DNA of 63,462 bases, the filler included, from Acidimicrobiia bacterium (GTDB lineage: Bacteria > Actinomycetota > Acidimicrobiia > Spongiisociales > SHLN01): assembly GCA_041619515.1 (NCBI GenBank). It is 3 parts of 3 records of this genome, joined end to end, with 100 filler letters (N's around TTAATTAATTAA, not from the genome) between each part and the next. Parts side by side here need not be neighbours in the genome. Positions count along the whole stretch, not along the records: positions 1 to 26,600 come from JBFKDW010000039.1; 2 more parts are not named here. One strand, written 5' to 3'. The notes beneath the pieces were generated by a model, which saw nothing but the letters and a program-made list of their open reading frames with translations, was not told the origin of the DNA and ran no database searches. Positions 10,317 to 53,034 of this stretch are shown piece after piece. The position numbers and the translations under genes are program-made. Each line of letters starts with the position of its first letter. Within the stretch, counting starts at the first letter, position 1.

Positions 10317-10407
10317 GCGGCCGACAGCAACCGGCGAGGCCCGAGAGCTCCGAGGTGCCCTGACCGTCTGGGATCAAGCTTCTGTGCCAGCGGCCGATGG
10401 TTGCCGC

Positions 10408-11193
10408 ATGCGAGCGAGGTGTCTGATGGCGGCGCTGCTGATGGGCGCGTTCGGGCTCTCGGCGGCAGGCCCGGCCCAGGCAGCGGCTCCACTCGACTCG
10501 ATCGGGCTGGTGGATCCCACCAAAGGGGTCTGGTACCTGCGAACCGCCGGCGGCTCGGTGTGGAGCTTCTATTTCGGCGTTCCCGGGGATGTGCCCCTCG
10601 TGGGTGATTGGGACTGTGACGGCGTCGATACCCCGGGGATCTTCCGCCCCGCCACCGGCGCCGCCCACCTGCGCAACTCGGCATCAACCGGCGCCGCCGA
10701 TGTCGTGTTCTCGTTCGGTCTCCCCGGGGATGTCCCGCTGGCAGGCGACTGGGACGGCGACGGATGTGACACCCTCGGGGTGTATCGCAACGGACGGGTG
10801 TTCGTCCGCAACTCACTCGACACGGGCCCGGCCGACGCGTCGTTCTACTTCGGGGCGCCCGGCGATCGGCCCTTCGCCGGTGACTGGGACGGCGACGGGT
10901 CAGACGGCGTCGGGCTCTATCGGGAGGGCGCCTGGCGAGCGTACCTGCGACAGTCGCTCACCACCGGCCTCGCCGATTTCGAGTTCTACTACGGAACGGC
11001 CGGCGACCGGATCGTCGCCGGCGACTGGGACGGTGACGGTGACGACACCGTCGGCGTCTACCGCCGCTCCGCAGGCCGTTTCTACCTCTCCAACGAGAAC
11101 GGGCAACCGGTCGCCGACCTCGTCATCCCGTTCGGCGGTGGGGCGTTCACGCCGGTGGCCGGCGCCTTCTCCCCACCGGCACCGCCGGGCTGA
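10408..11193 (+). CDS. Secreted protein made of GDWDGDG (FG-GAP/VCBS-like) repeats
   Basis: Signal peptide ending AQA and four GDW(D)xDGxD repeats. Confidence 0.85.
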   Translation: MRARCLMAALLMGAFGLSAAGPAQAAAPLDSIGLVDPTKGVWYLRTAGGSVWSFYFGVPGDVPLVGDWDCDGVDTPGIFRPATGAAHLRNSASTGAADVVFSFGLPGDVPLAGDWDGDGCDTLGVYRNGRVFVRNSLDTGPADASFYFGAPGDRPFAGDWDGDGSDGVGLYREGAWRAYLRQSLTTGLADFEFYYGTAGDRIVAGDWDGDGDDTVGVYRRSAGRFYLSNENGQPVADLVIPFGGGAFTPVAGAFSPPAPPG

Positions 11194-13710: not shown

Positions 13711-15105
13711 ATGGGGTTCGCGGTGAAGATCGTCTACATCACGAACGGGATGGCATCCACCCTCAACTCGAGCCTGGAATTGAGCCGCAGGCTGACGGAC
13801 GCGGGGCACGAGGTGATCTACCTGAGCCAGGCCGACGTGTGCCCCAGGGTGCAGGCGGCGGGGTATCGATGCCGCCGGCTGGAAGCCGATCAAGCCTTCC
13901 AGGAGGAAGCTCCCGGGCCGGTGTCGGTCAGGAACCCGATCGGCTGGGCTCGCACGCTGCTCCAGCGCCGGGGGATTCGCCGTCGGTCCGTTCGAAACAC
14001 CGAGATCGAGTCGGCGGTCGCCGAGCTGGATCCTGACCTGCTCCTGATCGACATCGAGATGCACTTTGCGATCATCGCCACCGCTTCGCTCGGCATACCG
14101 ACGCTGCTTCCCATCGTGTGGTTCTCCATCTTCAAACACCCCGCGCTCCCACCCATGCACACCAAGCTGACGCCGCCAGCCACCCCACGGGGGCGGCTCG
14201 CCATTGCGCTGGCCTGGTGGCGGTTGCGGATCCGGGTGATCGGCGGGGATTGGAAGGACCGCCTCAGGCGCACCCTCAGCGGAGACCTGTTCCGCCCCGT
14301 CGCCTACGACACCGTGAACATCGACGACCTGCGGGCGCTGGCAAAGTCGCGAACGTTCAGCTTGCGACGCAACGCCGACCGCTCACACTGGCTCCGCCCG
14401 TACGCGTACACCCGCCTACCCGTCCTCTCGTTCACGGCTCGCGAAATGGAGTTCCCCCATGAGCCCTGGCCGATGCTCCATTACGTCGGCCCAATGGTGC
14501 TCCGCGATCGACCCGAGACCCTCGTCGACGAGGCGGCCTCCGCCGCCTGGCGACGCTTCGCCGCCGACCGCCGGCCGGGGCGGCCCCTCGTCTACTGCTC
14601 GCTGGGAACCTTCTGGTCGATGGATGATGACTTCCTGCGCCGGGTGCTCGACGTCTTCGAGCGCCGCACCGACTGGGACCTCGTGATCGGGCTGGGCGGC
14701 AAGCTCGACCCGGCCCGGTTGGCGCCGATTCCGCCGAACGCGCTCGTCGTCGACTACGCGCCCCAGCTGGAGGTGCTGGCCCAGGCAGACTGCGCCATCA
14801 CCCACGGCGGCATCACAACCATCAACGAGTGCATCGAATTCGAGGTGCCGATGGTGGTGTATTCGACCGAGCATGTCGACCAGGACGGCTGCGCCGCCCG
14901 GGTGGCGTTCCATCGGCTGGGGGTGGTTGCCGACATCGGGGCCGCCGGCGTGGATGCGGTGGAAGGCAATATCGAACGCGCGCTGCAGGATGCGGAGATC
15001 CGGGAGAACGTCGCCGCCATGCGGGCCCACTTCGATGGGTACCGCAGCCCGGATGCCGCCGTCCGGCTGATCGAGTCACTCGGCGGTCCTCCGACCGACA
15101 CCTAG
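13711..15105 (+). CDS. GT1 family glycosyltransferase (MGT/UGT type)
   Basis: YCSLGT and PSPG-like box YAPQLEVLAQADCAITHGGITTINE...DQ. Start may be GTG13723. Confidence 0.9.
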   Translation: MGFAVKIVYITNGMASTLNSSLELSRRLTDAGHEVIYLSQADVCPRVQAAGYRCRRLEADQAFQEEAPGPVSVRNPIGWARTLLQRRGIRRRSVRNTEIESAVAELDPDLLLIDIEMHFAIIATASLGIPTLLPIVWFSIFKHPALPPMHTKLTPPATPRGRLAIALAWWRLRIRVIGGDWKDRLRRTLSGDLFRPVAYDTVNIDDLRALAKSRTFSLRRNADRSHWLRPYAYTRLPVLSFTAREMEFPHEPWPMLHYVGPMVLRDRPETLVDEAASAAWRRFAADRRPGRPLVYCSLGTFWSMDDDFLRRVLDVFERRTDWDLVIGLGGKLDPARLAPIPPNALVVDYAPQLEVLAQADCAITHGGITTINECIEFEVPMVVYSTEHVDQDGCAARVAFHRLGVVADIGAAGVDAVEGNIERALQDAEIRENVAAMRAHFDGYRSPDAAVRLIESLGGPPTDT

Positions 15106-15143: not shown

Positions 15144-16397
15144 TCAGCGGTCGTTCGCGGCCGGGCTCGGTGCCGGGCTGTACAGCTGCTTGATCGACCA
15201 CCGGAAGCCGACATAGCGAACGACGGCGAACCCGAGCAGCGAGAGCACGAGGGCGAAGGACTTGGTGACGGGGGCGGTGAAGGCGATGGGGATCTGCACG
15301 AGAGCGGCCACCACGTAGATCTTGAAGATGTCGCGTTCTCTCCGGCCTCCCACCAGCTGGGAATCCTCCGAGAACAGCATGCCCCAGAGGATGTTGTTCA
15401 CGATGGTGAGTGCGGTGAGGAACTCGATCGTGAAGGCCTCCCGGACCAGCCACCGCATCGGATTCCCCGGCCAATCGAACCCCATCCACACCAGGAACAC
15501 GAAGCCGGGAACGAGGACGACGAACTTGGAGATCCGGGCAAGCCGCATCCCCTCGGAGCGATTCCTCTCCCGACCTGCCAGCAGGGAGGGCGGGTTGAGG
15601 ACCGCCGATACCCCACCGACGAACACCAGCAGGGGCCGGGCGGCTATTCGGGCCGCCTCGGCGAAGCCGAGTGCCTCGCTGCCGGCGGTGATGTCGACGA
15701 TCGAGGCGGCCACGAAGGCGGCGCCGAGCTGTATGACGGCGACCCCGGCCAGCCACCGGCCGGGAGCAGCCAGGCTCCGAAGCGAGTAGGGGTCGCCCTC
15801 GGCAGGCACTGCGGTGCCCCGCGCCAGGGCGAAGCCGACCGTCATGGACACGATGTTGGCGGCCACCAGGGCTCCGAACGGGACCCAGGCCGGGTCGAGG
15901 TCGACGAGCACGCCCCCGGTGATGAACACTGCCGCCACCGCCAGCTGGACGACCGAGGTCATCGCAGCGAGCCAGGAACGACCCGCCAGGTGCATGACTC
16001 GTCGAACGTGATCCTGGATCGGGGAGAGGATCGCCGCAATCACCGCAGTGAGCGCGAGGGGGCCGAGCAACGACAACTCAGCATCGCGCGCCGGGATCCA
16101 CGCCAGCAGCACCAGCAAGCTCGAAACCAGCGCCACCGGGACGCCGGTGGGGAGCGTCAGACGGTACCCCGCCAGCTGGCCTTCCTTCGGCTGGCCGAGC
16201 AAGCGAACCTCGCCCGGTAGAAAAGAGAGCGTGAACGGGACGATGGTGGCAACCAGGAAGCTGGCGAAGAACAGTGCATACACGCCCAGCTCCGCCGGGG
16301 CGAGCTTGGCCGCGGCGTACACGCCGGTGCCGAAGGTTGCGAGCGCCGCCGAGCCGGCATCGAGAAGCCCGGCGGGGATCGACTTGGAAAGACGCAT
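15144..16397 (-). CDS. Oligosaccharide flippase-like (Wzx/MATE-like) membrane protein
   Basis: About 12 TM segments and an L-x-P-x-E-L-G-V-Y-A pattern near the N-terminus. Confidence 0.7.
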   Translation of the reverse strand: MRLSKSIPAGLLDAGSAALATFGTGVYAAAKLAPAELGVYALFFASFLVATIVPFTLSFLPGEVRLLGQPKEGQLAGYRLTLPTGVPVALVSSLLVLLAWIPARDAELSLLGPLALTAVIAAILSPIQDHVRRVMHLAGRSWLAAMTSVVQLAVAAVFITGGVLVDLDPAWVPFGALVAANIVSMTVGFALARGTAVPAEGDPYSLRSLAAPGRWLAGVAVIQLGAAFVAASIVDITAGSEALGFAEAARIAARPLLVFVGGVSAVLNPPSLLAGRERNRSEGMRLARISKFVVLVPGFVFLVWMGFDWPGNPMRWLVREAFTIEFLTALTIVNNILWGMLFSEDSQLVGGRRERDIFKIYVVAALVQIPIAFTAPVTKSFALVLSLLGFAVVRYVGFRWSIKQLYSPAPSPAANDR

Positions 16398-16496: not shown

Positions 16497-17822
16497 CTAG
16501 CCGACGTGGGGCTCATCAGCCGCCGGCAGCAGGCGCCCCCGATCTCTCTCCAACCAGAGCGTCGCCATCGACACCACGGTGAGGACGACGATCAGGATGA
16601 GCGAGCGGGGCCACAGCACGACGCGATCGACCAGCGCGTCGACATTCAGATCGATGCCGAATGCCCGGTCGAGCGCCCAGCCGGCGGCGATCGCCGCCAG
16701 CACTCCCGAGCCGGCATACATGGCCGGGAGGTAGAAACGGGTCCGGCGCAGCATGAAGAGGCTCGGGAACACCAGCAGGATGATGAGAGCCTGCCCCAGC
16801 TCGATCCCGAGGTTGAAGCCGAGCAGCGAGACGAAGCGCCGTGATTGGGTGAGGCCGAGGTCGCTGAGCAGGCCTGCGAACCCGAAGCCGTGGAACAACC
16901 CGAAGCCGAAGGCGATCAGCCACTCCTTGTTGACGAACAGCGGCCGGATGTTGTGGAGGGCGGCCAGCGCGATCGACAGCGCAATGACGGTTTCGACGAG
17001 GGCAGGCGGCAGCTCGATGATCCCCAGCCCACCCAGCGTCAGGGTGACGGTATGGGCCACGGTGAACATGGTCACGATCTTCAATACCCGCCACAGGCTG
17101 GATCCGAAACTCGGAGCCGCCCGCCAGCCGCCCTCGCGGGAGAACACCAGCACGCTGGGAAGCACGAGCGCGAGGATGAACAGGATGTGATCGGTCCCGA
17201 TCCGAATGTGCTCGACACCCAGGTCGATGACTCCTCCGACGCCTTTCCAGAACGACGTGTCACCAAGGTCGACCTGCTGGGTGGTGGTGCCGGGGGTGAA
17301 GCGCAAGAGCTCGCTGGCCTCGTTGTTGAAGGTCCCCGAGCCCCAGTCGGTGCCGATGATGAGGAGCGCGCTGCGCTCGGACTTGGCGTGAAGAATGCCG
17401 TCGTAGGTTGCCGTGAACCGGCGCGGCACCGGCGAGAACTCCCGGTCGACTGCGAAGTCGAGCACGAGGTACGAGCCGGCCGCACCGATGTCGAGTACCG
17501 AGAACTCTTCGAAGAGGATCGGCCACTCGCCCGTTACGTCGCCGAGCGCCAGGTGAGCAGTCACATAGTCCTCCAGCACCCGGCGGTTCTGCTCCGCAGC
17601 CGCCACAGCATCCTCTTCGTCGAATGGGAGACTGAGCGATAGGACCTCGTTGAGATCACCGATGGGGAACTCGACCCGCCCTTCGATGGTGGAGTCGTAC
17701 AGGTCGAGGTAGACGTAGCTCTCCTCGCCGCTGTGAGCAGAGGCCGCCGACGGCAACGCCAGCAGCACGAACAGCACCGCCAGCACCACCACGCGTCGTT
17801 TCCCGCCACCTGTTGTCAACAC
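16497..17822 (-). CDS. HupE/UreJ family membrane protein with N-terminal extracytoplasmic domain
   Basis: GVEHI-x-x-G-x-DHILF, FTVAHTVTL, FGLFHGFGFA, FNLGIELGQ; signal peptide ending ASA-H. Confidence 0.9.
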   Translation of the reverse strand: MLTTGGGKRRVVVLAVLFVLLALPSAASAHSGEESYVYLDLYDSTIEGRVEFPIGDLNEVLSLSLPFDEEDAVAAAEQNRRVLEDYVTAHLALGDVTGEWPILFEEFSVLDIGAAGSYLVLDFAVDREFSPVPRRFTATYDGILHAKSERSALLIIGTDWGSGTFNNEASELLRFTPGTTTQQVDLGDTSFWKGVGGVIDLGVEHIRIGTDHILFILALVLPSVLVFSREGGWRAAPSFGSSLWRVLKIVTMFTVAHTVTLTLGGLGIIELPPALVETVIALSIALAALHNIRPLFVNKEWLIAFGFGLFHGFGFAGLLSDLGLTQSRRFVSLLGFNLGIELGQALIILLVFPSLFMLRRTRFYLPAMYAGSGVLAAIAAGWALDRAFGIDLNVDALVDRVVLWPRSLILIVVLTVVSMATLWLERDRGRLLPAADEPHVG

Positions 17823-18175
17823 CGTCGTCCGCCTCTCCGCTTCATGCCGGGTATCAACGTACCCCCAATCCGGCAGCTATGTGCTCGGGCCCGGCGGCGG
17901 CTTCCCGGAATGCGGGCGCCCGCCGGCGACGCCAACGCCCGCCGACGACGGGCGGGTGTCCAATTCGGCAACCGCCACCCATTCACGAGCGCCGCCCGCG
18001 AAACCACATATCGTCGTATGCATGACCACTTTGCGTGTTACGATGGCTCAATGGGCCGCCGACATGGCGGTCCATGTCCAGGGGGTGCCGGCTGCGTAGC
18101 GACGGCATTGACGCTATACATACGACCGCGCGGCAACCGCTCGATCATCGGGGCAGGCGGGAAGGGAGAAATCGA

Positions 18176-19303
18176 ATGGATGTCGATCGTAGTTCGTTCG
18201 GTACCACGATCATCGCACGGGATCACATCGCAACCATCGTCAACGCAGTCGGCCTCGACGCGCTCATGGACGAGATGATCGCCTCGCTGACAACGGCCAT
18301 CGAGGACTACGACGAAACCCGCACCCACGTCCGGACCCGGGACGGTTTCCACTATCGCGAGCCCGATGTCGGGCTGCTCGAATGGATGCCGGTGATGCAC
18401 ACGGCGCAGTCGACCACCATCAAGGTCGTCGGGTACCACCCGACCAACCCGACCAAGCGATCGCTCCCCACCATCCTCTCCACCATCAGCGTGTTCGACA
18501 CCGCCACCGGACATATGACGGGCCTGGCAGACGGGACGTTCCTCACGGCGCTTCGAACCGGGGCCGCCTCCGCCATCGCCAGCAAGGTGCTGGCCCGGCC
18601 CGAATCCCATGTTCTCGGCCTGGTCGGGTGCGGAGCACAATCCATCACCCAAATGCACGCCATCGTGCGCAGCTTCCCGATCGACCAGGTCCTCATCGCC
18701 GATGTCGACGAGCACAACGTCGACACGTTCGCCGGGCGAGCCGCCGAGATCCTGCCGCTGTCGGTTGAGATCAAGCCGACACCGGTGGATCTGCTCATGG
18801 CGTGGAGCGACATCGTCTGCACCTCGACATCCGTCGGCATCGGAGAGGGGCCTCTCTTCGCCGACCTGACCACCAAGCCGTGGCTCCACATCAACGCGGT
18901 CGGGTCGGACTTCCCCGGCAAGGTTGAGCTCCCGCTCTCGCTGCTCCGCCGCAGCCTCGTGTGCCCCGACGTGCCCGAACAGGCGGTCAAAGAAGGCGAG
19001 TGCCAGCAGCTCACCGCCGAGGAGATCGGCCCGCACCTGGCCAAGATCGTCGCCCGGCCCGACGAGTTCGCGCCCGCCCGGGACCGGCTAACCGTGTTCG
19101 ACTCGACCGGCTGGGCGCTGGGCGATCAGGTTGCCATGCAACTGCTGCTGCGCCACGCCGCCAACCTCGGAGTCGGGATCGAGATCAATCTCGAGGACAT
19201 TGGAGAGGACCCGCTCGACCCCTATCACCTCGGCCGGGAGCGCACCGGTGGCGGCTCCGGCACAGCTGCGATAGAGCAGGGCTCTCTCAACGCGGAGGGC
19301 TGA
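18176..19303 (+). CDS. Lysine/ornithine cyclodeaminase (RapL/PipA-like, probably L-pipecolate forming)
   Basis: LEWMP, LPTIL, LTALRTGAASA, HINAVG, EGECQQL, FDSTG and the C-terminal LDPY tail of the RapL subgroup. Confidence 0.88.
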   Translation: MDVDRSSFGTTIIARDHIATIVNAVGLDALMDEMIASLTTAIEDYDETRTHVRTRDGFHYREPDVGLLEWMPVMHTAQSTTIKVVGYHPTNPTKRSLPTILSTISVFDTATGHMTGLADGTFLTALRTGAASAIASKVLARPESHVLGLVGCGAQSITQMHAIVRSFPIDQVLIADVDEHNVDTFAGRAAEILPLSVEIKPTPVDLLMAWSDIVCTSTSVGIGEGPLFADLTTKPWLHINAVGSDFPGKVELPLSLLRRSLVCPDVPEQAVKEGECQQLTAEEIGPHLAKIVARPDEFAPARDRLTVFDSTGWALGDQVAMQLLLRHAANLGVGIEINLEDIGEDPLDPYHLGRERTGGGSGTAAIEQGSLNAEG

Positions 19304-20445
19304 TGGAGTTCGGCTTCACAGAGGACCAGGAGGCACTGCGGGCCGAGACGCTGGAATTCACCGCCTCCCTCGGCGGCGAGCCGGGCACCGGCGATGCAGG
19401 CGAGGGATTCGATCACAAGCTGTGGGCTCGCTGCGCCCAGTTCGGCATCCTCGGCGCGTTCGTTCCCGAGCAGTACGGAGGCCGCGGCCTCGACCTGGTA
19501 TCGGCCATGGTGATGATGGAGGCGCTCGGCTACGGATGCCGGAACAACGGCCTCACCCTCGCCCTCAACGGCCACATGTGGGCGGTCCAGGAGCCAATCC
19601 TGCGCTTCGGGACCGAAGCTCAAAAGCAGCGGTTCCTTCCCGGCATGGTCTCGGGGGCGCTGCTGGGCGCCGACGCGGTAACCGAGGCCGGCGCCGGCTC
19701 GGACGTCAACAGCATGCAAACCACCGCACACGAGCGGGACGGTGGGTACGTGCTGAACGGCCACAAGTCCTACATAGGGCTGGCACCGGTGTGCGACCTC
19801 GCGCTCGTGTTCGCCACCAGCGACCCGGCCCTCGGCCAGTGGGGCATCAACGCCTTCATCGTCCCGGCCGACAGCCCCGGGTTCCATCGGGGAGAGCCTC
19901 GCCCCAAGATGGGCCTGGACGGCAGCCCGCTGGGAGACATCGTGCTGGAGGACGTCTTCGTGCCGTCGGAGCTGCGGCTCGGCCCCAGGGGTGCCGGAGC
20001 AAGCATCTTCAATCACTCCCTGGATTGGGAACGCAGTTTCATCTTCGCCAGCCACGTCGGGTCGATGGATCGCCAGCTGGAGGAGAACATCGAATACGCC
20101 AGGAGCCGCCGCCAGTTCGGCGAGCCGATCGGACATTTCCAGTCGGTGGCCAATCGGATCGCCGACATGAAGCTGCGACTGGAGACGGCGCGCCTCCTCC
20201 TGTACAAGGCCGCCTGGATGATGGATCGCGGCGAGCCGGTCCAGATGGCGTCCGCCCTCGCCAAGCTCCACATCGCCGAGTCGTTCGTCAGCTCCAGCAT
20301 GGACTCGGTACGCAACCACGGCGCTCGCGGCTATCTGAGGGAGTTCGGACTGGAGCAGGATCTGCGCGACGCCGTGGGGGGAGTCATCTACGGTGGGACC
20401 TCCGATATCCAGAGGCGGGCCATCGCCCGCCTGCTCGGCTTGTGA
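19303..20445 (+). CDS. Acyl-CoA dehydrogenase family, aminoacyl-PCP dehydrogenase (PltE/RedW/AnaB-like)
   Basis: TEAGAGSD, LDWER (candidate catalytic Glu), RRQFG, IYGGTSDIQR. TGATG coupling to the upstream gene. Confidence 0.9.
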   Translation: MEFGFTEDQEALRAETLEFTASLGGEPGTGDAGEGFDHKLWARCAQFGILGAFVPEQYGGRGLDLVSAMVMMEALGYGCRNNGLTLALNGHMWAVQEPILRFGTEAQKQRFLPGMVSGALLGADAVTEAGAGSDVNSMQTTAHERDGGYVLNGHKSYIGLAPVCDLALVFATSDPALGQWGINAFIVPADSPGFHRGEPRPKMGLDGSPLGDIVLEDVFVPSELRLGPRGAGASIFNHSLDWERSFIFASHVGSMDRQLEENIEYARSRRQFGEPIGHFQSVANRIADMKLRLETARLLLYKAAWMMDRGEPVQMASALAKLHIAESFVSSSMDSVRNHGARGYLREFGLEQDLRDAVGGVIYGGTSDIQRRAIARLLGL

Positions 20446-20458
20446 CGGGAGAGCGGCG

Positions 20459-22057
20459 GTGATGCCTCCACACGTGTACTTGCTGCCGCAGCTGGTCGAA
20501 CGGGCGGCCGAGACCCGTCCCGACGGCGACGCCCTGCGCTGTCGCGGACAAGCGCTGACCTACTCACAGTTGTACGAGCGGGCATCTGCGCTGGCCAACG
20601 GCCTCGTAGAGAGCGGAATGCAACCCGGGGACAGAGTCGGCATCCTGCTCAACAAGGGCCTCGAGAGCGCCGTCGCCCTCTACGGCATCATGCTGGCCGG
20701 CGGGGTGTACGTGCCGCTCGACCCGTTTGCACCCTCCGCCCGCACCGAGTTCGTCATCCGGGACTGCGGGATTCGGCGCCTGGTGGCCGGCCCCCGCACC
20801 ACGCCGGCACTGGAAGCCCTCGCGCGAGCAGGTGTCGAGATCGAAACCGTGTTCGGGCTCGCCGACCACGAATCACTCCCCTTCCCGCTGGTGGGGTGGG
20901 ATGCCATCGGGGCGCTCCCGCCGGTTCCCCCGACCGTAGCGACCACCGAGCTGGATCTTTGCTACATCCTCTACACGAGTGGCTCGACCGGTACCCCCAA
21001 GGGCATCATGCACACGCACCGCAGCGCGCTGGCGTGGGCAGAGGTGTCGGCGGCAGCCTACGACCTCGGTCCGGCCGATGTCATCAGCAATTACGCCCCG
21101 CTGCATTTCGATCTCTCCACCCTCGACTACTTCGCAGGGGCGAAAGCAGGCGCGACCACCACCATCATTCCCGAGGAGATAACCAAGTTCCCCGCCAGCC
21201 TGGCGAGCCTGCTGGCGGACGAGCGGCTGACGGTGTTCTACACGGTGCCGATGGCGTTGATTCAGCTTGCCCAGCCCGGGATTCTCGACGAGCACGACCT
21301 CGACGCGCTGCGACTCGTCCTGTTCGGGGGCGAGCCGATGCCACTCAAGCACTTGCGGCGCATCATGGAACGGATCCCCCACGCCGAATTCGTCAACGTA
21401 TACGGGCCCACCGAGGTGAACGGCTGCACCCACCACCGGATCGACGCAATCCCGGCGGAGGACGACGAGCCTCTCCCGATCGGCCATCCCTATCCGAACG
21501 TCGAGGCACTGGTGGTCGACGAGCGCTCCGAGCCGGTGCCGGACGGGGAACCCGGTGAGCTGCTGATCCGGACACCGACGATGATGCGGGGATACTGGGC
21601 CCGCCAGGACCTCAACGAGGGGGCGTTCTACGAGCGAACCCCCTTTGGAGGGCTGCCTGAGGTCTTTCATCGCACCGGCGACCTGGTCCGGACCGGCGCC
21701 GACGGGGCGCTCCGGTTCCTGGGGAGAAAGGACCGGCAGATCAAGTCACGGGGCTATCGGGTCGAGCTGGACGAGGTGGAAGCGGTCCTGCTGTCCCATC
21801 CCGCCGTGCACGAGGCTGCGGTATACGCGATGCCGGATGCCGAAGGCTCGCTGGAGATTCGCGCCGAAGCGATCCCGGTCTCCGGAGACGTCGACTCGGC
21901 CGAGCTGGTCGGGCACCTGCGGCGGTCGCTTCCCTCCTACGCGGTTCCCGCTGCGGTGAGGCTGCGGGAGTCGTTCCCGCGTACCTCGTCGGGCAAGATA
22001 GACCGGCTGGCCATGCAGGCCGACTCGGTCGAGGCGCCGGCGGCGGTAAGGGGGTAG
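20459..22057 (+). CDS. Stand-alone amino-acid adenylation enzyme (PltF/RedM-like; proline/pipecolate)
   Basis: YTSGSTGTPKG, FDLS, YGPTE, RTGDL, PRTSSGKIDR; no T or C domain. Confidence 0.92.
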   Translation: MMPPHVYLLPQLVERAAETRPDGDALRCRGQALTYSQLYERASALANGLVESGMQPGDRVGILLNKGLESAVALYGIMLAGGVYVPLDPFAPSARTEFVIRDCGIRRLVAGPRTTPALEALARAGVEIETVFGLADHESLPFPLVGWDAIGALPPVPPTVATTELDLCYILYTSGSTGTPKGIMHTHRSALAWAEVSAAAYDLGPADVISNYAPLHFDLSTLDYFAGAKAGATTTIIPEEITKFPASLASLLADERLTVFYTVPMALIQLAQPGILDEHDLDALRLVLFGGEPMPLKHLRRIMERIPHAEFVNVYGPTEVNGCTHHRIDAIPAEDDEPLPIGHPYPNVEALVVDERSEPVPDGEPGELLIRTPTMMRGYWARQDLNEGAFYERTPFGGLPEVFHRTGDLVRTGADGALRFLGRKDRQIKSRGYRVELDEVEAVLLSHPAVHEAAVYAMPDAEGSLEIRAEAIPVSGDVDSAELVGHLRRSLPSYAVPAAVRLRESFPRTSSGKIDRLAMQADSVEAPAAVRG

Positions 22058-22059
22058 CG

Positions 22060-22320
22060 GTGGAATCGACACAAGCGGCACTGCTGCGATTCGTGAACGA
22101 GGATCTGCTCGGCGGGACCGGCGGCGCTGCCGGAAGCGACGACGAGATCGTCCTCGACGGCACGGTGGATTCGCTCGGGGTGGCCCGCCTGATCGGCTTC
22201 ATGGAGAGCGAGTTCGACGTGGCCGTCCCGGCCGAGGACGTGACGATCGAGAACTTCCGGTCGATCACCACCATGGCTGCCTACCTCCACCAGCGCGTCG
22301 AGTCGAAGGCCGCGTCGTGA
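22060..22320 (+). CDS. Stand-alone acyl/peptidyl carrier protein
   Basis: 86 aa, acidic, G-x-V-D-S-L-G phosphopantetheine site. Confidence 0.92.
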   Translation: MESTQAALLRFVNEDLLGGTGGAAGSDDEIVLDGTVDSLGVARLIGFMESEFDVAVPAEDVTIENFRSITTMAAYLHQRVESKAAS

Positions 22321-25300
22321 GCTCAGCCGAGGGCAACGGCCGGCCGGCGGGATGGCTGCCCCTGACGAATGCGCAACAGTTGATCTGGGCGAGCCAGCAG
22401 CTCCACCCCGACGCGCCGCTCTACAACATGGCGTTCATCTTCGAGATCTCCGGCGAGGTGGAGCCGGCTGCATTCACCGAAGCGTTCCGCAGGTTGATGG
22501 ATCAGTGCGACGCACTGCGAACCGTCCTCGACAGCGCAGACGGCGTCCCCCGCCAGCGAGTCCTCGACACCCTTGAATTCGATCTCCCGATCGTCGATGT
22601 CGGCGCCTCCCCCGACCCGGCGGCGGCGGCCCGGGAATGGGCGCAACAGCAATGCGAGGCCCCGTTTCGCCTCGACCACCGGCTCTTCGACACGGCGCTC
22701 CTCCGGCTGGGTGCCGGCCACTGGGCCTGGTATTTCAACCAGCATCATCTCGTCACCGACGCCTGGTCGTCTGCGGTCATCTACGAGCGGATGGAGAGTC
22801 TGTACCGGAGCATCCGGCGCGGAACCGAAGGTCCCGACGGACCGCTCCCCCCGTTTGCGGAGTATCTCCCCTTCGAGCGGGCGAGCGCCGCCGAGGCCGG
22901 CCTCTCCGACGGCGCCGGGGCGGCACCCGGCACCTCGCTCTCCCTGTACGGCCGGCGGGCCCGGCCGGCCGGGACCCGCAACACCCGCCTCACCCACCAA
23001 CTGTCGGAAACCCAGACGGAACAGCTCGCCGATCTGGCACTGGCTCCGAAGTTCCGGGCGCTCACCCCGGACCTGACCCGCTTCCGGCTGATCGCAACCG
23101 CCCTGTTCGCTTATTTGCATCGTGTCGGCGGACAGCCGCGCCTCACGATCGGCGCTCCGGCCCACAACCGGGCCACATCCGAATTCCGCCAAAGCGCCGG
23201 GCTGTTCATGGAGATGTTCCCTCTCGACGTCGAAATCGAGCCGGGTGAGACCTTCGCCTCACTGCACACGAAGGTGGCGGCCGCGGCCGACGCCTTCATC
23301 CGGAGCGCACGGCCCGGCGGCAGCACGGCCCAGATGAACCGCACCATCAACGCCGTCCTCAACGTCATCCGCGGCGAGTTCTCCGACTTCGACGGGGCGC
23401 CGGTGCATGCCGAATGGCTCCACCCCGGGCACGTCGACGCAGAGCATCATCTGCGCCTCCAGGTCCATGATTTCAACGCCACCGGCCGGCTCACCCTGCT
23501 GTTCGACTGCAGCCGCGATTTGCTGGACGAGGACCTCCTGCCCGAGGTCCCTGAGCACTTCCTCCGCGTCTTCGATGCCATGCTCGCCGACGTCGAGCAG
23601 CCCATCGCCGAGGTCGATCTCTTGTCGGCCGACCAGCGCCGGGCGGTGCTCGACGCCGTCAACGGCACCACCCTCCAAGGCGCCGGCTGGGCCTCGGTGG
23701 TGCAACGGTTCGAGAACTGGGTCCGGGCCGATCCCGGCGCGGTTGCGCTGGCCGATCAGGCACGGCGCTGGAGCTACGCCGAGCTGGATGCCGCTACCTC
23801 CCGCATCGCAGCCGGCATCAGCCCGGGGTCGGTGGTCGGTGTCTGTCTCGGGCGATCACCCGAGGCCGTCATCACCATGCTGGGCGTGCTGAGGGCCGGA
23901 GCAGCCTACGTTCCGATCGACCCCGGCTGGCCGCTCAGCCGCATCGAATACGTAGTGAGCGACGCCGGGTGCTCGCTCCTCGTCTCCGACCGGCCGCTCC
24001 CGATCGCCTCCGTTGCCTTCGCCGACCTCCTGGCATCGGAGCCGCAGGCCGAGCCGGTCAGGATCGCCGACCACGATCTCGCCTACGTCCTCTACACCTC
24101 GGGGTCCACCGGCCGGCCGAAGGGCGTGATGATCGAGCACGGGTCGCTTGCCAACTACGTGAGCTGGGCAAGTGATTTCTACGACTCCGGAAGACGCTTG
24201 TCGTTCCCGCTGTTCACCCCACTCACGTTCGACCTCACCGTCACCTCGGTGTTCGTCCCACTCACATCGGGCGGCTCGATCGTCGTCTACCCGGAGGCGG
24301 AAGGGCCGGCGGACACCGCCGTGCAGCAGGTGTTCGAAGACGGAGCCGTCGACATCGTCAAGCTCACCCCGTCCCACCTGGCCCTGCTACCCGATCGCGA
24401 CTACTCATCGTCGAACATCCGCCAGTTGATCCTCGGCGGGGAGGACCTGACGGCGGCCGCCGCCCGCCGGGTGCACGACCGCTTCTCGGGCAACCTGCGG
24501 ATTCACAACGAATACGGCCCGACCGAAGCCACCGTCGGCTGCATCGTCCACACCTACGAGGCGTCCCGGGATGGCTCCGGCAGCGTCCCGATCGGAACTC
24601 CGATCCGGAACATGCGGGCCTACGTGCTCGATGAGGGCGGCAGACCCGTCCCGTTCGGCGTTCCCGGAGAGCTCTGGCTCGCCGGCGCCGGGCTGGCCCG
24701 CGGCTATGCCGGTGCACCCGACCTGACCGCCGACCGGTTCTTCGGAAACACGCACGTCGACGAGGAGCGCCTCTACCGGACCGGCGACCTGGCACGGGTC
24801 CGCACCACCGGCACCATCGAATACCTCGGCCGGCAGGACGACCAGGTCAAGGTCCGGGGCGCCAGGCTCGAGCTGGGAGAGGTCGAGGCTGCCCTGGCCA
24901 CCCATCCCCTGATCACCGCCACCGCCGCCCGGGTGTGGGAACGGGAACGCCCGGCCGCCCCCGAAGAGCTGGTCTATTGCGCACGATGCGGCCTCGCCTC
25001 CGACTACCCGGACGTCGAGTTCGACGCCGGGCGCGTGTGCAATCACTGCCGCTCCTTCGAAACCTACCGGGACAAGGCCCAGGTGTACTTCAAGCCGATG
25101 GCAGAGCTGGCCGCAGTGTTCCAGTCAGACCGCCCCGGCCCCGCGCCCGAATACGATTGCATCGCCCTCCTCAGCGGAGGCAAGGACAGCACCTACGCCC
25201 TGTGCCGGCTGGTCGACATGGGCCTGCGGGTGCTGGCCTTCACACTCGACAACGGGTACATCTCCAACGACGCCAAGGCGAACATCCGCCGGGTGGTGAC

Positions 25301-26600
25301 GGCGCTCGGCGTGGACCATGTGTTTGCCTCGACCCCGGCGATGAACGAGATCTTCGTCGACAGCCTGCAGCGCCACGGGAACGTCTGCAACGGCTGTTTC
25401 AAGACCATCTACACGCTGAGCCTCGAAACCGCCCGGGAGAAGAAGATCCCCTTCATCGTCACCGGGCTGTCGCGTGGACAGTTCTTCGAGACCCGGCTCA
25501 CCGAGGAGCTGTTCACCGAGCTGACCGTCAGCTCCGACCAGATCGACGCCAACGTCCTCGAGGCCCGCAAGGCCTACCACCAGGTTGACGACGCCGTACA
25601 CCGGCTGCTCGATGTTTCGATCTTCGACGGCGACGCCATCTTCGACGACGTGCAATTCGTCGATTTCTACCGGTATTGCGACGTCGACCTCGACGAGCTC
25701 ATGGCCTACCTGGACGAGCGGGTCCCGTGGGTGCGGCCGAGCGACACCGGTCGCTCCACCAACTGCCGAATCAACGACGTCGGGATCTACTTCCACAGGC
25801 AGACCCGCGGCTTTCACAATTACTCCCTCCCCTACAGCTGGGACGTCCGCATGGGACACAAGACCCGGGAGGCGGCTCTCGATGAGCTCGACGATGACAT
25901 CGACGTTGCCGAAGTGCAGCGGATTCTCGCCGAGATCGGGTTCCCGGAGGACGTCGCCGACCTCGAAACCGGCCGCCGTCTGGTCGCCTACTACGTCGCC
26001 CCCGAGGACATCTCGGCCTCCGAGCTGCGCCTGCACGTCGGCGAGGCGCTACCCGAGCAGATGGTGCCCTCGCTGTTCGTCCGGCTCGACGCCATCCCGC
26101 TGTCGGCGAATGGCAAGGTGGACCGGGAGGCGCTCCCCGAGCCCGGGAAAGGCCGGCCCCAGGTGGATTCGGTGTTCCTGGCCCCCCGCACCGAAGCCGA
26201 AATCACGCTGAGCACCATCTGGCAGGACGTCCTCGGGATCGACGGGATCGGCGTACGCGACAGCTTCTTCGACCTCGGCGGCGACTCCATCATGGCCATC
26301 CAGATCGTGGCCAGAGCCCACCGCGCCGGGCTGAACATCACCCTCCAGCAACTGTTCAACGCCCTCACGGTGGAACGCCTTGCCCAGTCGGCAGGCGGCG
26401 TCCATCAGATCGCTGCCGAGCGGGTCGTCGGCCCCGTCGGGATGACGCCGATCCAGCGGTGGTTCCTCGAGGAACACGGCAACGAGGGGCACTTCCACCA
26501 GGTGCTGCACCTGGACGTGCCAGAAGGGCTCGACCGAGGGCTCTTGGCCGAATGCCTCACGGCATTGGCAGGCCATCACGACGCGCTCAGACAGAGCTTC
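22317..26600 (+). CDS. NRPS, 3'-truncated: starter C - A(Asn) interrupted by AMDH-like domain - T - start of E domain
   Basis: HHLVTDA, A-domain core motifs, hand-extracted code DLTKIGEVGK, SGGKDS insert, LGGDSI T domain, TPIQRWF...HHDALR. Runs into the gap. Confidence 0.95.
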
Positions 26601-26700
26601 NNNNNNNNNNNNNNNNNNNNNNNNNNNNNNNNNNNNNNNNNNNNTTAATTAATTAANNNNNNNNNNNNNNNNNNNNNNNNNNNNNNNNNNNNNNNNNNNN
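26601..26700. other. Artificial contig linker
   Basis: N runs flanking TTAATTAATTAA (stops in all six frames). Confidence 0.97.
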
Positions 26701-52934: not shown

Positions 52935-53034
52935 NNNNNNNNNNNNNNNNNNNNNNNNNNNNNNNNNNNNNNNNNNNNTTAATTAATTAANNNNNNNNNN
53001 NNNNNNNNNNNNNNNNNNNNNNNNNNNNNNNNNN
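52935..53034. other. Artificial contig linker
   Basis: N runs flanking TTAATTAATTAA. Confidence 0.97.

Follow-up and report, generated by a model that had tools for sequence, protein, structure and literature searches.

What would a PP-loop ATP pyrophosphatase do inside the adenylation (A) domain of a nonribosomal peptide synthetase (NRPS)? The question is raised by an NRPS gene at the end of the first of three contigs in 63,462 nucleotides of DNA from Acidimicrobiia bacterium (GenBank assembly GCA_041619515.1), a stretch that we refer to as the window. An earlier note had described, between motifs A8 and A9 of an asparagine (Asn)-coded A domain in this gene, an insert of the kind known from AlbIV (albicidin, Xanthomonas albilineans) and CysH (cystobactamid, Cystobacter velatus). 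The feature is real and was correctly named; it is an already described domain and no new kind of thing. We consider it probable that the insert belongs to the AMDH (asparagine aminomutase/dehydratase) family, that is, a PP-loop ATP pyrophosphatase resembling N-acetyl sugar amidotransferases (NASATs) that is housed in an Asn A domain and modifies the bound Asn by the steps set out below.

The inserted domain and its relatives

The gene is laid out as follows (aa, amino acid positions in the NRPS protein; C, condensation; T, thiolation; E, epimerisation).

22317..26600, plus strand: NRPS gene, C-A(AMDH)-T-E(start), 1428 aa present, 3′ part missing beyond the contig end
22356..23645, plus strand: C domain, aa 14-443 (Pfam PF00668, 5.8e-56)
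23709..24926, plus strand: A domain core with motifs A1-A8, aa 465-870 (Pfam PF00501, 4.4e-77; AMP-binding 465-797)
24948..25979, plus strand: AMDH-type PP-loop domain, aa 878-1221, about 344 aa, between both strands of the A-subdomain hairpin
24978..25049, plus strand: tetracysteine ribbon CARC...CNHC (C888, C891, C908, C911), from motif scan and alignment
25173..25190, plus strand: PP-loop SGGKDS, the ATP pyrophosphatase signature, aa 953-958, invariant in the alignment
25386..25397, plus strand: CNGC, aa 1024-1027 (C1024, C1027), start of a CXXC...C triad, invariant
25755..25766, plus strand: STNC, aa 1147-1150 (C1150), third cysteine of the triad, within invariant DTGRSTNC
25980..26186, plus strand: remainder of the A subdomain with A9 and A10 (Pfam AMP-binding_C 1214-1267)
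26208..26387, plus strand: T (carrier) domain, GGDSI at aa 1321-1325 (Pfam PF00550, 5.6e-14; PP-binding 1298-1357)
26430..26600, plus strand: epimerisation-type domain, first ~57 residues, truncated (PIQRWF, aa 1378-1383)
26601..26700, no strand: artificial contig joiner N44-TTAATTAATTAA-N44, with the DNA of another contig beyond

The reading frame is stop-free in translation and open up to the contig end, and all five motifs named by the earlier note (CARC at aa 888-891, CNHC at aa 908-911, SGGKDS, CNGC and STNC) were located in it between A8 (GRQDDQVKVRG, aa 838-848) and A9 (LPEQMVP, aa 1245-1251), which lie 396 aa apart; A10 follows as NGKVDR (aa 1265-1270, with K1267). The boundaries proposed before, 24940-25975, missed the reading frame although they were only a few bases off, and are corrected here to 24948-25979. 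An AlphaFold2 model presents the insert as a compact domain (pLDDT 88, pTM 0.84), flanked by the hairpin strands (residues 9-17 and 360-368 in the modelled piece of 381 aa).

Computation reproduced the hand-read code of the surrounding A domain, DLTKIGEVGK. This code is identical to the signature that a 2025 survey lists for the β-cyanoalanine (Cya-3) of albicidin, incorporated by AlbIV (PMC12283262). It also varies little: among 69 modules (the window and the 68 of 80 loci that have a full A region), every one carries DLTK[IVL]GE[VI]GK, with the exact DLTKIGEVGK in 61 and a single position off in the other eight. The host A domain is accordingly predicted to be Asn-specific, and the description of a PP-loop (adenine nucleotide alpha hydrolase) domain at the AlbIV/CysH position of an Asn-coded A domain stands.

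The family likeness extends further. AMDH is described as a 38-kDa domain whose core region 1 is the ATP-binding SGGKD, with six further core regions (Gross et al. 2021, PMC7966384, Supplementary Fig. 10), and the insertion in AlbIV is given as 342 aa (PMC12283262). CysH and AlbIV thus share with the window gene a PP-loop domain of about 340 aa, carrying SGGKD and inserted downstream of A8 of an Asn-coded A domain (in AlbIV with the same DLTKIGEVGK), and by analogy the chemistry expected on carrier-bound Asn, towards a nitrile or isoasparagine. Because position, size, PP-loop and host-domain specificity all fit, we take the insert to be a probable member of the AMDH family. The only direct hint of kinship with AlbIV is a protein that is 60% identical (P0331) and is named ‘albIV’ by its NCBI source. 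None of the best 120 homologues in two homologue searches came from Xanthomonas or Cystobacter, and for ten candidates with the length of an A-T protein, a cluster look-up gave nothing more specific than unnamed metagenome proteins or a generic name.

CysH and AlbIV differ from the window gene in being stand-alone A-T proteins that feed assembly lines for para-aminobenzoic acid (PABA) oligomers in trans, whereas here the domain lies in what appears to be a C-A-T-E(start) elongation module with a proline-derived starter, a histidine (His)-coded module next and an Acidimicrobiia-like genome around it; partners of the CysJ, CysQ and CysB type were not found in the cluster. The earlier note had taken such a cis-acting full module to be novel and its host unexpected, and neither view survives comparison. 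By length, the best 120 proteins are dominated by C-A-T modules plus one further domain (58 of 1700-1999 aa) and by C-A-T modules (55 of 1250-1549 aa), although stand-alone A-T forms of 960-990 aa exist too, for example in Microvirga. Numerous orphan homologues had also been published in 2021, when BLAST was reported to place them all within Asn-specific A domains of biosynthetic gene clusters of unknown function (PMC7966384). Among relatives of the host, the domain was found in 5 of 40 searched and in 3 of 7 within the same genus, and the closest named matches are metagenome-assembled genomes of Acidimicrobiia. In this host group, AMDH in cis within a full module is the norm and no surprise.

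Relatives are numerous. An exhaustive profile-free search returned 3093 representative proteins at E ≤ 1e-3; the number falls to 1429 at ≤ 1e-10 and to 591 at ≤ 1e-30, and the top 150 are all at least 51% identical. In contigs representing one genome per species, 300 of 350 candidate stretches encode a relative of the insert, and the same in-frame architecture was present at all 80 fetched loci. Embedded copies at 54-80% identity span at least eight phyla, occurring in Acidimicrobiia, Planctomycetota, cyanobacteria, Bacteroidota, Chloroflexota, Acidobacteriota, Calditrichota and Proteobacteria, while the C domain of the same proteins is only 31-65% identical. An alignment of 39 insert sequences has about 90 invariant columns, SGGKDS among them, and this motif is kept in 261 of 261 homologues retrieved. 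In the same alignment three cysteines of the tetracysteine ribbon (C29, C32 and C52) are invariant and the fourth (C49) is conserved in at least 90%.

By fold, the nearest solved relative is the NASAT LpNASAT (8WEX; E 2.5e-12, TM score 0.52), followed by YcfA, TtuA, LarE, NcsA and asparagine synthetase, all of them PP-loop enzymes. A search of PDB sequences with the insert alone gave weak matches only, the ESM Atlas gave only leads below 0.9, to sugar amidotransferase clusters, and Pfam shows a weak QueC match at aa 948-1020. NASATs are characterised by an SGGxDS loop and a zinc-binding tetracysteine, CXXCXn[GN]XCXXC (PMC10607449), both of which the insert carries; most homologues have G at the [GN] position, where the window has R. 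NASATs (WbuX/WbpG, TIGR03573) are therefore alike in structure, ribbon and PP-loop, and presumably both use ATP to activate an amide oxygen. Yet NASATs are free-standing proteins of sugar and lipopolysaccharide loci that act on sugars and yield amidines, whereas the insert is embedded in an NRPS at 80 of 80 loci. Its match to NCBIfam TIGR03573 (WbuX) is below the family cutoff (115.9 bits against 203.2, covering profile positions 3-320 of 344), and named free-standing NASATs share only 29-33% identity over partial lengths, against the 54-80% of NRPS-embedded copies. Judged by these comparisons, the insert does not group with the free-standing sugar amidotransferases, a grouping that the earlier note had held would count against it; the embedded copies are a tight group of their own.

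A second cysteine motif sets the insert apart. Neither of the two free-standing NASATs compared has the triad C1024, C1027 and C1150, but a split form from Streptomyces and a free-standing homologue from a Bacillus thuringiensis plasmid do. Together with the PP-loop it matches SGGXDS + CXXC-C, the tri-Cys cluster signature of the Fe-S PP-loop enzymes LarE and TtuA (PMC9283937), and its CxxC aligns with that of [4Fe-4S] LarE (8CNZ). In the active site, the triad next to the PP-loop probably holds a centre made up of a metal or an Fe-S cluster, as these alignments suggest. Such a centre would also explain why CysH is a dark brown protein, a colour that Gross et al. left open, their search being for a radical-SAM motif alone (PMC7966384). 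The tri-Cys [4Fe-4S] enzymes (TtuA, NcsA, LarE of T. maritima and M. maripaludis 8CNZ, and CtaC of closthioamide biosynthesis) share SGGxDS, CXXC and a distal cysteine with the insert, and CtaC likewise tailors a nonribosomal peptide; they differ in that they insert sulfur, whereas the characterised AMDH reactions are sulfur-free and the metal site of the insert is putative.

Two of these relatives occupy unusual settings. On plasmid DNA of B. thuringiensis HD1002 (L091, 5004-5975), genes for acyl carrier proteins, adenylate-forming enzymes and a ketosynthase surround the one for a PP-loop protein of 323 aa that is free-standing, is annotated as QueC, shares 30% identity with the insert and has the CXXC...C triad. 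This protein may modify amides in a carrier-protein-dependent way. In the split variant on a plasmid of Streptomyces sp. NBC_01216 (L090, 10062-14112), the A core and the AMDH-like domain are encoded by consecutive genes. The second gene, annotated ‘condensation domain-containing protein’, starts with the AMDH-like domain, which has 39% identity to that of the window. This pair adjoins asnB and genes for an amino-acid racemase and a tyrosine 2,3-aminomutase.

The assembly line and its presumed proline cassette

The window consists of three contigs stitched end to end at 26601-26700 and 52935-53034 (N runs at 26601-26644, 26657-26700, 52935-52978 and 52991-53034). The joiners are six-frame-stop linkers, and genes across a linker are not genome neighbours. 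Positions 1-26600 correspond to contig C39 of a 3.1-Mb genome in 146 contigs that is 95.65% complete. Since the joiner starts directly after 26600, the NRPS gene is truncated there and only about 57 residues of the domain following T are left. What is present is colinear with independent assemblies, with 71% identity over residues 7-1426 to the 1816-aa protein of the closest relative (L001). The 71-residue piece holding the start of the post-T domain aligns to positions 2787-2847 of PRK05691, which is where the complete C-terminal domains in L001 and in two further relatives (L012 and L017) begin to match this model. Those of L012 and L017 score 128 and 143 bits against the E-associated TIGR01720, which has a cutoff of 74.2. 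An E domain therefore likely follows T in the window gene. Of the C-A-T-E module described before, the C, A and GGDSI-type T domains and an E-type start were found, while the complete E domain is predicted, the gene being cut off by the contig end. A search for the remaining E domain elsewhere in the genome found no candidate, the best matches being domains of other modules at 31-37% identity; public Logan contigs extend 3.0-3.6 kb past 26600.

The rest of the cluster lies at the end of another contig of the same genome, C45 (locus L094, 14959-20000, minus strand), and comprises a partial A-T-C, a C-T-TE and a DrrA-like ABC ATPase. The A domain there has the code DSV[C/L]IAEVWK, and a DS[AV]L[IV]AEVWK module is found directly downstream of the AMDH module at 13 related loci; DSALIAEVWK is a reported His signature (PMC12283262). 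In one Pirellulaceae locus (L012, 12965-18530) and one Pyrinomonadaceae locus (L044, 13463-19131), the module after the AMDH module consists of three open reading frames, encoding C-A, a 262-aa weakly methyltransferase-like product and T-C; this split may represent an interrupted A domain or frame shifts.

Upstream of the NRPS gene, C39 encodes the following.

22060..22320, plus strand: stand-alone carrier protein, 86 aa, DSLG (Pfam PP-binding, 21.3 bits, cutoff 20.8)
20393..22057, plus strand: stand-alone adenylation enzyme, probably proline-specific (TIGR01733, 369 bits)
19303..20445, plus strand: prolyl-carrier-protein dehydrogenase-like flavoenzyme, acyl-CoA-dehydrogenase-like (PDB 4IRN prolyl-ACP dehydrogenase, 1.8e-106)
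18035..19303, plus strand: ornithine cyclodeaminase/mu-crystallin family protein (Pfam PF02423, 2.7e-52)
16497..17822, minus strand: HupE/UreJ_2 membrane protein, beside the cassette (Pfam PF13795, 1.3e-45)
13711..15105, plus strand: macrolide-type glycosyltransferase, near the cassette in 15 of 51 loci

The stand-alone A enzyme has its best single-domain PDB match in an L-proline-[carrier protein] ligase (6O6E, 264 bits). Its code, approximately DLLYLGVGCK, is one that we take to resemble those of pyrrole-type proline enzymes. Homologues of the carrier protein at other loci score 22.7-35.3 bits against Pfam PP-binding. The dehydrogenase scores 395.6 bits against NCBIfam PigA (cutoff 500) and 376.8 against RedW (cutoff 650), and the cyclodeaminase-family protein, which would supply proline, scores 164 bits against the NCBIfam ornithine cyclodeaminase (cutoff 350). 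We take this gene set to be a starter cassette that converts proline to a pyrrole or a pyrroline. Like the PltF/PltL/PltE, RedM/RedO/RedW and AnaC/AnaD/AnaB cassettes, it places a stand-alone A enzyme, a small carrier protein and a prolyl-carrier dehydrogenase directly upstream of the NRPS; it differs from them in that its PigA and RedW scores are under the equivalog cutoffs. The endpoint of oxidation may be pyrroline (AnaB-like) or pyrrole.

Among 51 loci having at least 7 kb upstream, the stand-alone A enzyme is encoded near the NRPS in 45, the HupE-like protein in 38, the dehydrogenase in 36 and the cyclodeaminase in 28, and the same gene set borders the NRPS on a plasmid of Roseovarius pelagicus. 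In the literature searched, no proline cassette was found to be paired with both an AMDH module and an ornithine cyclodeaminase. Three further reading frames on C39 (11833-13443, minus; 15144-16397, minus; 10384-11193, plus) have no Pfam match at E ≤ 1. The first encodes a 536-aa protein that has no PDB match either, and weak homologues of it (25-35% identity) stand by the cassette in 8 of the 51 loci. In Flavilitoribacter nigricans (L058, 11560-19998) and on the R. pelagicus plasmid (L089, 1-307 and 17547-21527), the cassette abuts polysaccharide-type genes (polysaccharide export, Wzz/tyrosine kinase, NeuB, UDP-GlcNAc 2-epimerase and CMP-nonulosonate); the nearest free-standing relatives of the insert likewise act in nonulosonic-acid and O-antigen loci.

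Likely chemistry and competing explanations

If the insert is an AMDH domain, the A domain would load L-Asn onto the adjacent T domain, as its code suggests, and the PP-loop domain would then activate, at the expense of ATP, the carboxamide oxygen in the side chain of the bound Asn, to judge by the fold and motif of the family. Loss of the activated oxygen would leave β-cyano-alanyl-S-T, or a rearrangement would give isoasparaginyl-S-T, by analogy with CysH, the single precedent. CysH is reported to load Asn and then to show a shift of -18 Da upon incubation, which no longer occurs once AMDH is deleted, and deletion of AMDH abolishes every isoasparagine and cyanoalanine cystobactamid (PMC7966384); cyanoalanine is also a constituent of albicidin (PMC7966384, PMC12283262). 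The genes scanned on C39 and C45 gave no Pfam match to a TauD/SyrP-type hydroxylase or an O-methyltransferase, and by the CysH precedent this lack of a CysJ-type hydroxylase and a CysQ-type O-methyltransferase on the two cluster contigs slightly favours the nitrile. The C domain would join the residue to a proline-derived pyrrole-2-carboxyl or pyrroline-5-carboxyl starter delivered by the stand-alone carrier protein, the E-type domain would probably invert it, and the His-coded module on the other contig would extend the chain. A D-cyanoalanine residue is plausible.

Several points weigh against this reading. Membership in AMDH rests on shared features and on statements in the literature rather than on an alignment or tree with CysH and AlbIV, and the activity of AMDH members inside full modules is a prediction by analogy. 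The code columns depend on a presumed GrsA numbering. The E domain is truncated in the window gene, and the corresponding domain of the closest relative, L001, scores below the TIGR01720 cutoff (53.9 bits against 74.2). A hydroxylase may sit in an unassembled gap or elsewhere among the 146 contigs. The nearest solved fold belongs to an enzyme that turns an amide into an amidine, and CXXC-C is otherwise typical of enzymes that insert sulfur. The AMDH mechanism itself is described as unknown by Gross et al. (PMC7966384); our searches for literature on the mechanism of AMDH/AlbIV yielded nothing newer of relevance than PMC7966384 and PMC12283262, and PMC10212144 merely cites the albicidin paper.

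The fold and the triad could instead point to transfer of a nucleophile, by which tethered Asn or the nascent peptide would become a thioamide (thio-Asn, with sulfide from a tri-Cys Fe-S cluster) or an amidine. Besides the match to amidine-forming 8WEX, this is suggested by the alignment of the invariant triad with the [4Fe-4S] cluster ligands of LarE, part of a sulfur-inserting signature (PMC9283937), by the Fe-S enzyme CtaC of the same hydrolase superfamily (AANH), which thioamidates a nonribosomal peptide backbone in closthioamide biosynthesis (PMC6772006), by the brown colour of CysH, and by the occurrence of the triad in the B. thuringiensis homologue amid a carrier-protein-rich cluster when two free NASATs lack it. 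Against it stand the -18 Da shift in vitro and the loss of nitrile and isoasparagine in vivo for CysH, the only member tested, the cyanoalanine of albicidin, and the scanned genes of C39 and C45, in which no Pfam family of glutaminases (HisH/WbuY-like), sulfur carriers or cysteine desulfurases occurs; we regard nucleophile transfer as unlikely, though of some weight. Also improbable, and more speculative, is a reading in which the product of this Acidimicrobiia-type subfamily is an N-capped X-X-His peptide metallophore and the tri-Cys Fe-S centre of AMDH serves as a non-redox Lewis acid in making the nitrile or isoamide. The peptide would comprise, in order, the pyrroline or pyrrole cap, a D-configured AMDH-modified Asn and His, whose ring nitrogen, two backbone amides and imidazole would form a square-planar nickel, copper or cobalt site like that of ATCUN (amino-terminal copper- and nickel-binding) motifs, with the conserved HupE/UreJ-type membrane protein as the handler of the metal or of its complex. 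If true, this would be a new and phylogenetically very widespread class of small metallophore.

We give little credence to a catalytically silent insert that acts only as a scaffold or docking surface in a module incorporating D- or L-Asn. AMDH has been proposed to mediate protein-protein contacts too, since its deletion loses O-methylation (PMC7966384), but the catalytic signatures are all intact here and the insert is the best-conserved part of these proteins across phyla, its conservation above that of the C domain being unlike a relic. Finally, the notion that the junctions join an NRPS gene to a sugar-amidotransferase gene by chimeric assembly is refuted. The source is indeed a fragmented metagenome-type assembly, and Logan contigs of three runs break near 25330-25364. 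Yet both junctions are bridged by public-run contigs from three studies, one of which may be the source sample: a contig covering 24300-25364 is present in runs X1 and X2, and contigs covering 25335-26292, 25826-26600, 25770-26270 and 25847-26600 in runs X1, X2, X5 and X6. The recurrence of the in-frame architecture at every fetched locus and of relatives in most candidate stretches, as well as the colinearity with the independently assembled L001 protein, speak against a chimera in the same way. The insert junctions are genuine and no assembly artefact, so the check for a chimera in the reads, which the earlier note had called for, comes out in its favour.

Where the contigs of the three public runs end, summed depth peaks as well (window 25301-25377), which is consistent with a conserved stretch common to several organisms in the same metagenomes. 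No RNA run was present among the listed sequencing runs matching the locus.

A probable AMDH domain in its commonest setting

With the insert probably an AMDH domain, the locus bears on a family so far tied to only two pathways, both of them leading to PABA antibiotics, and presents it in its commonest natural setting, namely a full module with a proline-derived starter in an orphan cassette. This cassette is conserved from Acidimicrobiia to Bacteroidota, cyanobacteria, Planctomycetota and Roseobacteraceae. Its cultured carriers include Flavilitoribacter nigricans DSM 23189, Pricia antarctica DSM 23421, Leptobacterium flavescens KCTC 22160, Maribacter algarum RZ26 and Roseovarius pelagicus HL-MP18. 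The interest that remains lies in the orphan cross-phylum cassette and in the putative Fe-S-type triad of its PP-loop domain. As several cultured carriers exist, both the product and the role of the cysteine triad are directly testable.

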